This document shows, piece by piece, positions 33,585 through 39,334 of a stretch of 64,000 nt of DNA (positions are counted from its first letter, which is position 1; the number at the start of each line of letters is the position of its first letter). This DNA comes from Bacteroidales bacterium (GTDB taxonomy: Bacteria; Bacteroidota; Bacteroidia; Bacteroidales; JAAYUG01): positions 2,941 through 66,940 of the forward strand of contig JAAYUG010000137.1 in the NCBI GenBank assembly GCA_012517825.1. Direction: 5' to 3'. Under the pieces are notes generated by a model. The model worked only from the letters and a program-made list of their open reading frames with translations. It was not told the DNA's origin and searched no databases. The translations under genes and the position numbers were made by a program.

Positions 33585-33703
33585 AAAACAGATGTAAAGA
33601 ATGAATGTGTAAAAATATCATTTTGCATCTGGTTCCAAATAGTAATTATATTGTAATTTTGTCATGTTTTAATACCTTTTGTCAGGAACAGGAAACACCC
33701 TCT

Positions 33704-34951
33704 ATGGAAACATTCACGCAAAACAAAGAAATACAACAGATTAAACAGCGCTTCGGGATTATAGGCAACAGCCCGGGGCTGAACCGTGCCATTGATATTG
33801 CCCGACAGGTTGCCCCTACAGATCTTTCGGTTCTCATTACGGGAGAAAGTGGCACCGGCAAGGAGGTTTTCCCGCAAATAATCCACCAGTACAGCATCCG
33901 TAAGCACGGAACCTATATTGCGGTAAACTGTGGTGCTATTCCTGAAGGCACAATCGATTCCGAACTTTTCGGCCATGAGAAAGGTTCCTTTACGGGCGCT
34001 CATGAAAGCAGAAAAGGATATTTTGAAGTTGCCAACGGCGGCACTATTTTCCTGGACGAGGTGGCCGACCTGCCCCTGGCTACTCAGGTACGGCTTCTTC
34101 GTGTACTTGAAACCGGAGAATTTATCAGGGTAGGATCTTCCAAAGTGCAGAAAACCAATGTACGGGTGATAGCTGCTACCAACATCGATATCCTGAAAAG
34201 CATTCAGGAGGGTAAGTTCAGGGAAGATCTTTACTACCGGCTCAATACTGTGCCCATTCATATTCCGCCTTTACGGGAAAGGACAGAAGACATTCCACTG
34301 CTTTTCCGCAAGTTTGCCACTGACTTTGCCGAACGGTACCGTATGCCTCCCATTACCATGGAGCCGGAAGCAATGGAAATGCTTCAGAACTATGAATGGC
34401 CGGGGAATATACGGCAGCTGAAAAACGTTACCGAACAGATATCGGTAATTGAACATAACCGTGTAATCGACAAAAATACCCTGAAAAAGTACCTGCCTGA
34501 TTATGTTGATGTAAAGCTCCCTGCCCTCTTCCGCTCCGATGATGCACGCTCATTTGCTTCCGAAAGAGAAATTCTTTACAAGGTTCTCTTCGACATGAAA
34601 AATGATGTCAACGACCTGAAAAAGCTGGTTCTTGAAATGATCAAATCAGGGAAAGCCGACGAAGGGGTAATGGAAAACAATGCACACATTATCAAAAAGC
34701 TGTATAACACCAGCGAAGGTGTTCTGGGTGCAAATTTCCGGCCTACCATTGAAGTTGCTCCTGAAGCCGGCACCATCATACAGGATACCGAGGAGATAGT
34801 GGAAGAAAACCTGTCTCTTGCCCAAAAGGAAATGGAATTAATAAAGAAAGCACTTGAAAAACATAATGGAAAACGAAGAAATGCTGCCCAGGAACTTGGA
34901 ATCTCGGAACGTACCCTTTACAGGAAAATTAAAGAATATAATCTTGCATAG
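33704..34951 (+). CDS. Sigma-54-dependent transcriptional activator (bEBP) without an N-terminal sensory domain
   Basis: Walker A GESGTGKE about 45 aa from the N-terminus, the sigma-54 contact loop GSFTGA (GAFTGA variant), Walker B FLDEV, and a C-terminal Fis-type HTH (AAQELGISERTLYRKIKEY). Start set to ATG 33704. A perfect TAATTTTG -7 box lies at 33654-33661. Confidence 0.9.
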   Translation: METFTQNKEIQQIKQRFGIIGNSPGLNRAIDIARQVAPTDLSVLITGESGTGKEVFPQIIHQYSIRKHGTYIAVNCGAIPEGTIDSELFGHEKGSFTGAHESRKGYFEVANGGTIFLDEVADLPLATQVRLLRVLETGEFIRVGSSKVQKTNVRVIAATNIDILKSIQEGKFREDLYYRLNTVPIHIPPLRERTEDIPLLFRKFATDFAERYRMPPITMEPEAMEMLQNYEWPGNIRQLKNVTEQISVIEHNRVIDKNTLKKYLPDYVDVKLPALFRSDDARSFASEREILYKVLFDMKNDVNDLKKLVLEMIKSGKADEGVMENNAHIIKKLYNTSEGVLGANFRPTIEVAPEAGTIIQDTEEIVEENLSLAQKEMELIKKALEKHNGKRRNAAQELGISERTLYRKIKEYNLA

Positions 34952-34955
34952 AAGT

Positions 34956-35459
34956 ATGTCCCGATCAGGAATTTTTCTTTTGCTGTCATTACTAATTCTG
35001 AAGGGATGCACGGTAAACTATTCTTTCTCAGGAGCCAGCATCGACCCGAAGATGAAGACCTATTCCGTGCAGTATTTCGCCAACCGGGCACCCATTGTTG
35101 TGCCAACTCTGAGCCAGCAATTGACCGAAGCCCTTCGCGAAAAAATCCGTTCCCAGACAAAACTCCGTCTGGTAACCGGTGTGGGCGATGCTGATTTTTC
35201 GGGTGAAATTACGCGGTATGAAACCCGGGCAACGGCCATTACCGGCAACGACCGGCCTGCCCAGAACCGTCTGACCATCGACGTAAGAGTACGCTATACC
35301 AATTCGGTGAATCCCAAAGAAAGTTTCGAGTCAACCTTCTCCCGCTACAAAGACTATGACGCCAACCAGAGCCTGGCAGCCGTGGAACAGGACCTTATCA
35401 AAGACATTCTGGAACTTCTTACCGAAGATATTTTCAATAAAGCCTTCGTTAACTGGTAG
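34956..35459 (+). CDS. lptE: LptE-family lipoprotein
   Basis: Lipobox LLILKGCTV, then YSFSGASI...KTYSV..F.N.A, typical of Bacteroidota LptE-like proteins. The true start is ATG 34956, 4 nt after the bEBP stop. Confidence 0.7.
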   Translation: MSRSGIFLLLSLLILKGCTVNYSFSGASIDPKMKTYSVQYFANRAPIVVPTLSQQLTEALREKIRSQTKLRLVTGVGDADFSGEITRYETRATAITGNDRPAQNRLTIDVRVRYTNSVNPKESFESTFSRYKDYDANQSLAAVEQDLIKDILELLTEDIFNKAFVNW

Positions 35460-35465
35460 TGAGAA

Positions 35466-36746
35466 ATGGAGCCTGAAAAATTATACAGCATCCTTAAAGA
35501 TGATCATGCCCTGCACGAGGAAATTGTTATTGAACTTCGTGAACTTATCGACAGGTTCCCATGGTTTTCTACCCCTCGTATAGTATTGCTCCGGCATTGG
35601 CGCCATACTAAAAATCCGGCTTTTACCCATGAATTTGAGGCCTGGCGTTCTTTCCTTTCCGGCCACGACATCATGCTGGTAACGGCACCCGTTAAAATGG
35701 CTCTGCATACTGAAACTGCCTGTTTCCAGGAAAGTACCGGAGAAATAACACAACCGGCTGAAGAAGCCCTGCAGACACCGTGCGAAAAAACAGAAGAAAA
35801 ACCAACCGACACCAACCATCAGGAAGAAATTCCTACCGAAGCACCACCCGAAACCCTGCCCGAAAAAGAACCTGAAAGTGTAACAGAAGAAACCGCAAGT
35901 GTTCAAAAATCTGCTGTTTCCGAAACTGCTCATGAACCTTTGGAACCCGTCAGGGAACCTCCTGATAAAGAAATCACCCTTCGCAGCCAGATCTCGGAGG
36001 TCCTGTCACGTCAGGCAAAAGCCCTGTCGGATGAACCGGAAGATTTTGAACTCGAATTTGAACCGGTGATTGGAATTATTACTCCGGAAAACGTTTTGCT
36101 TGAAGATCTTCCCTCCGCTGAAAAAAGTCAGGATTCTACGGCTGAACTTCTTACCCTGGAAGGAGGAAATAGTTCACCCACAGAAAATATTCCACCCGAA
36201 GAACCTATACCGGCTGATCTTACAACTATAGAAACCCTTGCCGGGAGAGAAGCCACAAACAACGTAACTGCTGAACCAACCGCAGCCGATTTTCCGCTTC
36301 CGTCACCTCCCGAAGAAGATAATACCAGAGAGCCTTCCGTTGAACCTGACCGGGAAAATACCAGTGATGCATCCATACCACCATACTTTGAACAGGAATA
36401 CTCCTTCTCCGAATGGCTCGAGGCCGTTAGTCAGCTGCCTCCTGCAGAACCTGAAGCCAGAGAAACGCTCACAAAACGAAAGGAAGATATCCTGATTGAA
36501 AATTTTCTGAAAAGCAATCCGCGGATTGACACTTCCGGTATTGAGAATATTCCCCAGGGCGATATTTCTGAACACAGCGTCAAGGAAAATGACAGTTTCA
36601 TAACAGATACCCTGGCACGCATCTATCTTCGCCAGGGGCTTTACACAAAGGCCATTCAGGCATATGAAAAACTGGCATTGAAATATCCGGAAAAAAACGC
36701 TTACTTTGCAGCGCAAATTGAAGAAATAAAAAAACTGATTCAATAA
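35466..36746 (+). CDS. Hypothetical protein with an acidic Pro/Glu-rich middle and a C-terminal TPR-like motif
   Basis: 426 aa. Low-complexity E/P/T-rich region (about aa 100-330). The C-terminus [39 protein letters not shown] looks like one TPR unit. Confidence 0.65.
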
Positions 36747-36765: not shown

Positions 36766-37131
36766 ATGTATTACGTAATTTCAGCAATTATCCTGCTCGT
36801 TTGTGTGCTCCTTATTCTCGTTGTTCTCGTTCAGAACTCAAAAGGAGGAGGGCTTGTTTCCAGTTTTGCCGCAACCAATCAGATAATGGGGGTTAAGAAA
36901 ACTGCTGATTTTCTTGAAAAGGCAACATGGACATTGGCGGTTGCCCTGCTGGTACTTTCTCTTGCTGCTGCAGCCACCATGCCGCGCAAGACAGCCAACC
37001 GTGAATCCCTTATGAAAGACCAGATTGAAAATGCCATTGATCCCAATGCCATGCCCAATTTTGGCACACCTGCCCAGCCAACACAACAGCAAAATCAGGA
37101 ACAACCAGCACAGGAAAAGAAAAACCCCTGA
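36766..37131 (+). CDS. secG: Preprotein translocase subunit SecG
   Basis: ILLVCVLLILVVLVQNSKGGGL..F is the SecG signature, followed by a second TM. Confidence 0.9.
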   Translation: MYYVISAIILLVCVLLILVVLVQNSKGGGLVSSFAATNQIMGVKKTADFLEKATWTLAVALLVLSLAAAATMPRKTANRESLMKDQIENAIDPNAMPNFGTPAQPTQQQNQEQPAQEKKNP

Positions 37132-37167
37132 CAGGGTTATTTGATAAAAATCTGATAAAATGTCAGT

Positions 37168-37195
37168 ATGTCAGAACATGCTGACATTTTTTTTG
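37168..37195 (+). terminator. Rho-independent terminator after secG
   Basis: ATGTCAG (37168-37174) / CTGACAT (37181-37187) with a 6-nt loop, followed by T8. Confidence 0.7.
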
Positions 37196-37331
37196 TTCTT
37201 CTGCCATCAGCCATTTCATAAACCATTACCAAATGTTCATTCACAAAAAATTGATTATTAATTAAATAGACGCAACTGCTCCCCAAAATTATCCATTACT
37301 GATGAAAACACAATAATGGCTATGGAATTTT

Positions 37332-37348
37332 TTGGCACAGTATGTGCC
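37332..37348 (+). promoter_or_regulatory. Sigma-54-type -24/-12 promoter candidate, also a perfect palindrome, upstream of groES
   Basis: TTGGCACAGTATGTGCC versus the consensus YTGGCACGrNNNTTGCW: GG and GC at the correct spacing, 14/17 matches. TGGCAC-N5-GTGCCA is a perfect inverted repeat (37333-37349). Lies 48 nt upstream of ATG 37395. Confidence 0.45.
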
Positions 37349-37394
37349 ATTAAAAGGCGGTAGAAAATTTTGTTTAACCTAAAACGATACCAAT

Positions 37395-37673
37395 ATGTCA
37401 GAAGTGAAAATCAAGCCTTTAGCCGACAGGGTTCTTGTGGAACCTCAGGAAGCTGAACAAAAAACTGCCAGCGGAATTATCATCCCCGACACCGCAAAGG
37501 AAAAGCCGCAACGCGGCATTGTAGTAGCCGTTGGTCCGGGAACAAAGGATGAAAAAATGGAAGTAAAAGCCGGTGATGTTGTTCTTTACGGAAAATATGC
37601 CGGTACGGAAATCAGCTATAATGGCAAGGATTATTTGATCATGCGCCAGAGTGACATACTGGCTATTATCTGA
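37395..37673 (+). CDS. groES: Co-chaperonin GroES
   Basis: 92 aa; [12 protein letters not shown]...[22 protein letters not shown]. Confidence 0.97.
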
Positions 37674-37687
37674 GTATTAACCTTTAA

Positions 37688-39334
<1,647 letters not shown>

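Follow-up and report, generated by a model that had tools for sequence, protein, structure and literature searches.

The question raised by this locus is which promoter transcribes the chaperonin operon groES-groEL of an uncultured Bacteroidales bacterium, and which regulator could act on that promoter. The operon lies in a 64,000-nucleotide stretch of contig JAAYUG010000137.1 (assembly GCA_012517825.1); the whole of this 64-kb stretch is referred to below as the window, and loci labelled L followed by a number are other Bacteroidota or metagenome contigs with which it was compared. A preliminary description, made from the sequence alone, had noted a -24/-12 element of the sigma-54 (RpoN) type in front of groES, and its coordinates, doublet spacing, consensus score and placement were all reproduced by direct reading. 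On the plus strand, positions 37332-37348 read TTGGCACAGTATGTGCC, with GG at 37334-37335 and GC at 37346-37347, separated by 10 nt. The sequence matches the consensus YTGGCACGrNNNTTGCW at 14 of 17 positions and the core TGGCAC-N5-TTGC at 9 of 10, and it is located on the plus strand 46-48 nt upstream of the groES ATG (37395).

The motif by itself is not rare. When one mismatch to TGGCAC-N5-TTGC was allowed, nine matches were found in the 64 kb as compared with 5.1 expected, which is unremarkable, and the chance of such a match on the correct strand of the 263-nt groES upstream region is roughly 0.01. For this reason the case for a promoter rests on position and conservation. Taking into account the direct reading, the orthologous motifs in relatives and the homologous groS promoter of Flavobacterium psychrophilum, all described below, we consider that TGGCAC-AGTAT-GTGC (37333-37348, plus strand) is very probably the sigma-54 promoter of groES-groEL in this bacterium.

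Conservation of the sigma-54 motif upstream of groES in Bacteroidota

The motif was searched for in the upstream regions of 80 Bacteroidota groES loci, namely the window and 79 others, using one genome per species. The loci belong to the Bacteroidales, Flavobacteriales, Cytophagales, Chitinophagales and Sphingobacteriales, and GroES identity ranges from 67 to 83%. A sequence TGGCA[C/T]-N7-TG was observed in 76 of the 80 regions, and in 72 of these 76 the distance to the start codon is 23-92 nt (median near 50 nt; 47 nt in the window). Columns that had not been used for the selection of the sites were conserved as well: the GG doublet is preceded by T in 75/76 sites, GGCA is followed by C or T in 74/76 and then by A in 56/76, and a T stands before the -12 G in 58/76. 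A best-match score of at least 8 was reached in 58 of 80 upstream regions, versus 19 of 80 on the reverse strand and 17 of 400 shuffled sequences. The retention of the same position in 76 of 80 loci is far beyond chance, and it supplies the conservation in relatives that the preliminary description had named as a check of its reading. The motif is present with or without an adjacent block of secG and a sigma-54 activator gene.

The -12 GC doublet, which had been taken as invariant, proved variable at its second base. The column equivalent to the -12 C contains A in 33 sites, C in 26, T in 13 and G in 4, so that A is more frequent than C, and the F. psychrophilum groS promoter has CTGA at this place.

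Published sigma-54 control of chaperone genes

Transcription start sites of F. psychrophilum have been mapped by Guerin et al. 2021 (PMC9723704). The groS start is located at position 867211 with a 5' untranslated region (5'UTR) of 30 nt, and the promoter was attributed, with a probability of 1, to the sigma-54 motif SM4; SM4 also drives lon, dnaK, grpE-dnaJ, htpG, skp and clpB, and groS-groL belong to co-expression cluster B254 (PMC9723704). The groS promoter listed in Table S2 of that study is aaaTGTCAGttttaaatccTTGGCATAATTTCTGAAAAG, in which we recognize the arrangement TGTCAG-N11-TGGCATAATTTCTGA and a start 13 nt past the base equivalent to the -12 C.

The window resembles this mapped promoter in several respects. 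The -24/-12 motif lies at a similar distance from the gene, the gene order (activator, lptE, a gene of unknown function, secG, groES, groEL) is the same, and in both cases secG and groES have a terminator between them. What marks SM4/B254-type promoters, a sigma-54 motif before groES with the -12 form TTG[A/C], is also found in the window. One difference is that F. psychrophilum has CTGA at -12, whereas the window has GTGC, which creates a palindrome. By analogy with groS, transcription in the window is inferred to start near 37359-37361 (plus strand), giving a 5'UTR of about 34-36 nt, that is, about 35 nt compared with the 30 nt of groS. Relative to a predicted start at about 37360, the promoter doublets are at about -26/-25 and -14/-13.

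Passages of a more recent survey based on position-specific scoring matrices (PLoS One 2025, PMC12316311) report that predicted sigma-54 promoters of GroEL, GroES, GrpE, DnaJ, DnaK and IbpA are enriched in Flavobacteriia, Bacteroidia and Cytophagia, and that HtpG and Clp/Lon are likewise predicted to be sigma-54-dependent. In these passages the predicted chaperone cluster spans Bacteroidota and Planctomycetota, and sigma-54-dependent groES transcription in B. thetaiotaomicron is cited (PMC12316311). The window can be considered a Bacteroidales instance of the cluster described there; the survey passages in question differ from the present analysis in naming neither an activator nor an upstream box. 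The earlier statement that sigma-54 control of a chaperonin operon had not been described is contradicted by both the 2021 study and these passages of the 2025 survey. For groESL, dnaK, grpE, htpG, lon and clpB of Bacteroidota, sigma-54 control has already been reported, and the window is a further instance of it.

In its target genes (groESL, dnaK and others) and its physiological role, this control resembles the classical heat-shock systems based on sigma-32 or on HrcA and its operator CIRCE (controlling inverted repeat of chaperone expression). It differs in the use of another sigma family with an obligatory ATP-dependent activator, and in the absence of CIRCE from the window. The CIRCE sequence TTAGCACTC-N9-GAGTGCTAA had been reported as missing, which a mismatch scan confirmed: the best match has 9 mismatches in the groES upstream region and 6 in the window.

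Alternative interpretations of the groES upstream region

The bases of the -24/-12 element also form a perfect inverted repeat, TGGCAC-AGTAT-GTGCCA (37333-37349). The perfection of the repeat, which had been pointed out before, was verified by direct reading, and this is its sole exact copy in the window. The repeat could thus be read as the operator of a dimeric repressor of the HrcA/CIRCE kind that controls a promoter elsewhere in the region, and its uniqueness and its placement between a terminator and groES would agree with that. The preliminary description had regarded such an operator as equally valid, a view that the comparison with related strains and loci does not sustain. The exact GroES protein is found on numerous metagenome contigs that share the gene order of the window, and the motif is unchanged in 8 of the 10 of them that were compared. 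The other two, L009 and L010, also encode an identical GroES, and their intergenic region is much more diverged than that of the other contigs; they retain TTTTTTGGCACAGTAT and all the sequence from it to the ATG except for three changes. The last 75 nt contain no other changes, and all three affect the right half of the palindrome, turning it into ATGACA while the left arm and the downstream sequence are kept. The palindrome is thereby broken, and the -12 GC is converted to GA. All six complementary pairs are formed in the window alone; in the remaining 72 scored sites the number of pairs ranges from 1 to 5 and is most often 3, and the conserved columns follow the asymmetric sigma-54 consensus. 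The palindrome can be explained by the fact that this consensus (TGGCA...TGC) is partly self-complementary, and we propose no separate function for it; as judged from these alignments, its perfection is an accident of this strain. An operator function appears very improbable.

A second interpretation is that groESL is mainly transcribed by the primary sigma factor from AAATTTTG (37365-37372, plus strand), with the sigma-54-like motif being silent or auxiliary. This sequence fits a relaxed -7 box at 7 of 8 positions of TAnnTTTG and is located 22 nt before the ATG, and the basal need for groESL is high, whereas sigma-54 promoters are usually tightly activator-dependent. A TAnnTTTG-type promoter had been mentioned as an alternative that would refute the sigma-54 reading, but the box is not enriched in relatives: between the -12 element and the ATG, a strict TAnnTTTG occurs in 3 of 73 loci (1.2 expected) and a relaxed form in 6 of 73 (4.0 expected), whereas the sigma-54 motif is near-universal. 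In the window, the -33 TTTG would be 30 nt from the -7 box, which is longer than the usual spacing. Moreover, the sole groS start of F. psychrophilum maps to the sigma-54 motif, with high expression in all conditions. We regard transcription mainly from the -7 box as unlikely. That the motif is a functionless chance match is scarcely credible; matches with at most one mismatch to TGGCAC-N5-TTGC are indeed expected about five times per 64 kb by chance, but the orthologous position is conserved throughout the phylum, the controls score far lower, and a homologous promoter has been mapped at F. psychrophilum groS. The sigma-54 reading of the element is supported by the same two lines of evidence, phylum-wide positional conservation and the mapped groS start.

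Two CCATTAC repeats upstream of the element had been suggested as enhancer sites. Their coordinates, 37223 and 37293, are correct, but the suggestion was abandoned: the word is common, with 17 copies in the window (12 on the plus and 5 on the minus strand), and the second copy is CCCTTAC in the same-species contigs L002, L003 and L005.

A conserved TGTCAG box upstream of the -24 element

In order to identify further conserved sequences, dyads and words were searched for upstream of the -24 element, and besides A/T runs only dyads based on TGTCA/TGACA stood out. The following statistics refer to the 73 loci with scored -24 elements. In 22 of the 73 loci a TGTCA, in most cases TGTCAG, begins at a distance of exactly 17 nt before the -24 T, and in 30 the distance is 16-18 nt. 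Further TGTCA copies cluster at 27-28, 37-39, 48, 59-60, 69, 80 and 88-91 nt, and the best-fitting period is about 10.25 bp (Rayleigh R 0.70 overall, 0.60 when the proximal class is left out). A bipartite unit, TGNCA-N3-TGTCA(G), could also be recognized: of its 51 plus-strand copies in 1.3 Mb, 25 are located within 250 nt upstream of a groES -24 element. The fixed spacing and the helical phasing speak for a DNA-bound protein in contact with the polymerase on a single face of the helix, and the simplest candidate for this protein would be the enhancer-binding protein of the regulon.

In the 1.3 Mb of sequence flanking the 80 loci, the only composite TGTCA plus sigma-54 sites found were groES itself and look-alikes in terminator stems, so that the flanks could not test for a regulon. 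Metagenome contigs, which could, were scanned with the pattern TGTCAG-N11-TGGCACA-N5-TG, derived from the groES sites alone. The scan returned 120 hits, and the first downstream open reading frame encodes DnaK in 21 of them, GroES in 20, HtpG in 7, a ClpB/ClpC-like protein in 4, FtsH in 2, small UVR-domain proteins in 2 and Hsp20 in 1; proteostasis genes lie downstream of nearly half of the hits. The full TG[A/C/T]CA-N3-TGTCAG immediately precedes the -24 element of the dnaK, htpG and clpB promoters. Among the F. psychrophilum promoters, that of groS has the box; in clpB the corresponding position reads TGTCC, the version at skp is weak, and the gliding motility gene remF lacks the box. As far as can be judged from these promoter sequences, the TGNCA-N3-TGTCAG box marks the chaperone subset of sigma-54 promoters.

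Two groups of hits may be mentioned separately. The UVR-domain proteins, in L173 and L200, have 126-146 amino acids with two UvrB/UvrC (UVR) motifs, are encoded 40-43 nt downstream of the composite motif, and could represent hitherto uncharacterised heat-shock regulon members. Contigs L095, L119, L166 and L174 have GC-rich dnaK promoters (TGTCAGCCGCGCGGCGTTGGCACACGGCTTGCAA) with unusually long leaders of about 143 nt and a GC-rich hairpin before them.

Neither a TGTCA box nor a named heat-shock activator of Bacteroidota was found described in the searchable literature, the coverage of which is incomplete. FleQ is a sigma-54 activator with a Fis-type helix-turn-helix (HTH) domain that binds GTCA-N6-TGAC. 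The case considered here is similar in the Fis-type HTH of a sigma-54 activator and in the GTCA/TGAC half-sites, and it differs in their spacing and arrangement, since here TGNCA-N3-TGTCAG, in direct or inverted orientation, adjoins the -24 element.

The box in the secG terminator

In the window, the TGTCAG words are located in the intrinsic terminator that closes the operon upstream of groES. The preliminary description had placed a strong terminator between secG and groES, and both a terminator scan and folding identified it at 37157-37195 (plus strand). The scan shows a stem of 14-15 bp followed by T8; the RNA folds with -22.9 kcal/mol (z = -3.3), and none of 200 shuffled sequences folds as well. 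The bipartite box TGTCAGTATGTCAG occupies 37161-37174, followed by an inverted TGACA at 37182-37186, so that the whole candidate enhancer, or upstream activating sequence, reads TGTCAG-TA-TGTCAG-AACATGC-TGACA (37161-37186, plus strand). The TGTCAG cluster precedes T37333 by 151-172 nt, which corresponds to about -199 to -174 relative to the predicted start. No other intergenic TG.CA-N3-TGTCAG is present in the window, where 0.12 are expected. In F. psychrophilum, by comparison, the TGTCAG box is 17 nt upstream of the -24 T, whereas the window has no proximal box and its promoter is separated from the box-bearing terminator by about 130 additional nt.

An arrangement TGTCAG-N2-TGTCA-N7/8-TGACA with a T run behind it is seen again in L013, L033, L043, L052, L060, L082 and L089, whose flanks cannot be aligned. 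In most of these seven loci it is found 25-90 nt from the -24 element; the additional nucleotides in the window lineage are poorly conserved. It is possible that the TGTCAG-rich hairpin at 37157-37195 is the secG terminator and nothing else, the enhancer lying elsewhere or the activator acting from solution. A hairpin with T8 after it is the classical form of an intrinsic terminator; among relatives, either 7 or 8 nt separate the second TGTCA from TGACA, a variation that fits a structure better than a fixed protein site; and a proximal box is missing from the window. On the other hand, it is the sequence of the stem, and not its pairing alone, that is conserved in eight loci of different lineages with unalignable flanks; the same word is found in the dnaK, htpG and clpB promoter boxes, which have no terminator context; and a bipartite box is rarely expected in a window of this size. 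With these points on both sides, a role as terminator alone has to be taken seriously.

In Flavobacteriia, the secG terminator stem is itself conserved in sequence (ATGCCAGC...GCTGGCAT, a T run, and TGACA/TGTCA in the loop). In L017, L019, L024, L025, L028, L051, L053, L056, L079, L083 and others, this stem precedes the groES -24 element by about 50-100 nt, and it contains a -24-like TGGCAT that gives rise to false sigma-54 hits such as TGGCATTTTTTTTTGC. A second TG.CA-N3-TGTCAG of the window (TGCCAAACTGTCAG, 38806-38819) is located inside the groEL coding sequence; as no sigma-54 motif follows it, it is probably a chance occurrence.

Between the box cluster and the promoter, an exact match (AATCAATTTTTTG) to the integration host factor (IHF) consensus WATCAANNNNTTR is found on the minus strand at 37244-37256, at about -116 to -104 from the predicted start. 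The window contains two IHF-consensus matches versus 4.8 expected, and this one is only partly kept in L009 and L010; any role of it in the groES promoter is speculative, the search having been an after-the-fact check. The putative boxes, the IHF match and the promoter doublets together resemble the textbook layout of a sigma-54 promoter.

A candidate activator encoded upstream of groES

The preliminary description had placed a sigma-54 activator gene at the head of the upstream operon, and its Pfam domains support this assignment. The gene is located at 33704-34951 on the plus strand (longest open reading frame 33605-34951). In its 415-residue form, the protein has a Sigma54_activat domain at residues 19-186 (E = 1e-68), AAA_lid_14 at 191-264 and a Fis-type HTH_8 at 372-412, with Walker A GESGTGK, Walker B DEV and a GSFTGA loop. 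No N-terminal sensor, whether receiver, GAF, PAS or V4R domain, was detected with Pfam. The start at M34 (33704) is the point where relatives begin to align, 33 codons after the beginning of the longest open reading frame, and the 415-residue form is probably the real one. Gene callers differ on the length of the protein, giving 448, 444 or 415 residues. About 105 residues (265-371) between the AAA lid and the HTH have no domain match, and the sigma-54-contacting loop is GSFTGA instead of GAFTGA.

The activator-lptE-X-secG block, in which X is a conserved gene of unknown function, immediately precedes groES in about 42 of the 79 other loci, belonging to several orders. This conserved neighbourhood makes the activator encoded at 33704-34951 the prime candidate for the groES promoter. 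The protein is similar to PspF-type activators in combining an AAA+ domain and a C-terminal Fis-type HTH with the lack of a sensor domain. It is not a PspF orthologue, since it scores 280 bits versus an NCBIfam PspF cutoff of 443.55; it further differs from PspF in the approximately 105 residues that separate the AAA lid from the HTH, and in that no PspA-like partner is evident in the window operon. In Escherichia coli, PspF is regulated in trans by PspA.

A sequence TGTCA-N16-TGTCAG at 33654-33685, just before the probable start of the activator gene, hinted at autoregulation. This possibility found no support, as the boxes have no positional conservation in 36 other loci, where 19 copies were found versus about 11 expected.

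Proposed regulation of groES-groEL

In the mechanism that we propose, RNA polymerase containing sigma-54 would form a closed complex on the -24 TGGCAC and the -12 (G)TGC, and an AAA+ enhancer-binding protein would remodel this complex, with transcription starting near 37359-37361, as predicted by analogy with groS. According to the conserved synteny, the likeliest activator would be the sensor-less PspF-like protein encoded four genes upstream. Its likeliest site would be the TGNCA-N3-TGTCAG box, as suggested by motif enrichment, phasing and the recovery of the regulon. This presumed site would abut the -24 element in most relatives, and here it would be located in the secG terminator, roughly 175-200 nt upstream of the predicted start. 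As judged from the promoter sequences compared, it is well supported that the window promoter is a further member of the sigma-54-dependent proteostasis (heat-shock) regulon of Bacteroidota. Only tentatively, and with the balance still somewhat against it, do we suggest that TGNCA-N3-TGTCAG is the Bacteroidota heat-shock enhancer at groES, dnaK, htpG, clpB, hsp20 and ftsH, bound by the sensor-less syntenic activator.

Several observations weigh against this scheme, some of them concerning the promoter and others the box and its activator. The -12 TGA of L009 and L010, in place of TGC, is off the classical consensus, although it is the commonest state in the phylum. The loci share phylogeny, so that counts such as 76 of 80 and the Rayleigh p-values overstate their independence. 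The RpoN box was not found in a six-frame translation of the 64-kb window; the presence of rpoN is implied indirectly by the sigma-54 activator gene. The AAATTTTG box at 37365-37372 could add basal groES transcription. At the -17 position, where 30 of 73 relatives have a proximal box, the window has ATGGCT. Its boxes are found only about 150-170 nt away and inside a well-formed terminator hairpin, at a distance at which helical phase cannot be judged, and because the box words double as the terminator stem, their presence could reflect terminator ancestry. Three candidate sigma-54 activators are present in F. psychrophilum (PMC9723704). The suggested link of the activator with the promoter and the box is drawn from gene neighbourhood only, and no conserved box was found upstream of the activator gene in other loci.

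The promoter itself provides an example, from an uncultured Bacteroidales bacterium, of sigma-54 rather than sigma-32 or HrcA driving core chaperone genes, which is a modest finding when taken alone. The part worth pursuing is the phased TGTCAG box, which was newly recognised here and does not come from the literature searched (incompletely), and its possible pairing with the activator. Such a pair would offer a testable answer to the question of which activator senses proteotoxic stress and where it is bound. If the proposal is true, the activator would be the functional counterpart of sigma-32 or HrcA, and, being sensor-less, it could plausibly be subject to control in trans, chaperone titration being one way. 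Box and activator would then form the master switch of the heat-shock response in a major phylum, whose members include gut Bacteroides as well as fish and oral pathogens. In the window, the box would have been absorbed into the secG terminator stem, so that one hairpin would end one operon and enhance the next.

Gene organization of the locus

The order activator, lptE, X, secG, groES, groEL is present in the window, with all of these genes on the plus strand. The identities given earlier to groES, groEL, secG and the sigma-54 activator were confirmed with NCBIfam and Pfam profiles. The groES gene (37395-37673) encodes a protein of 92 residues (NCBIfam co-chaperone GroES, E = 5e-41) and groEL (37700-39334) one of 544 residues (NCBIfam TIGR02348, E = 3e-262). 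Upstream, secG is located at 36766-37131 (NCBIfam TIGR00810, E = 3e-18) and lptE at 34956-35459 (Pfam LptE, E = 7e-20), and the upstream neighbour of the activator gene is kdsB, on the minus strand. Gene X (35466-36746) encodes a conserved protein of 426 residues with a weak C-terminal TPR, for which only sub-threshold hits were obtained, and its position between lptE and secG is syntenic throughout Bacteroidota.

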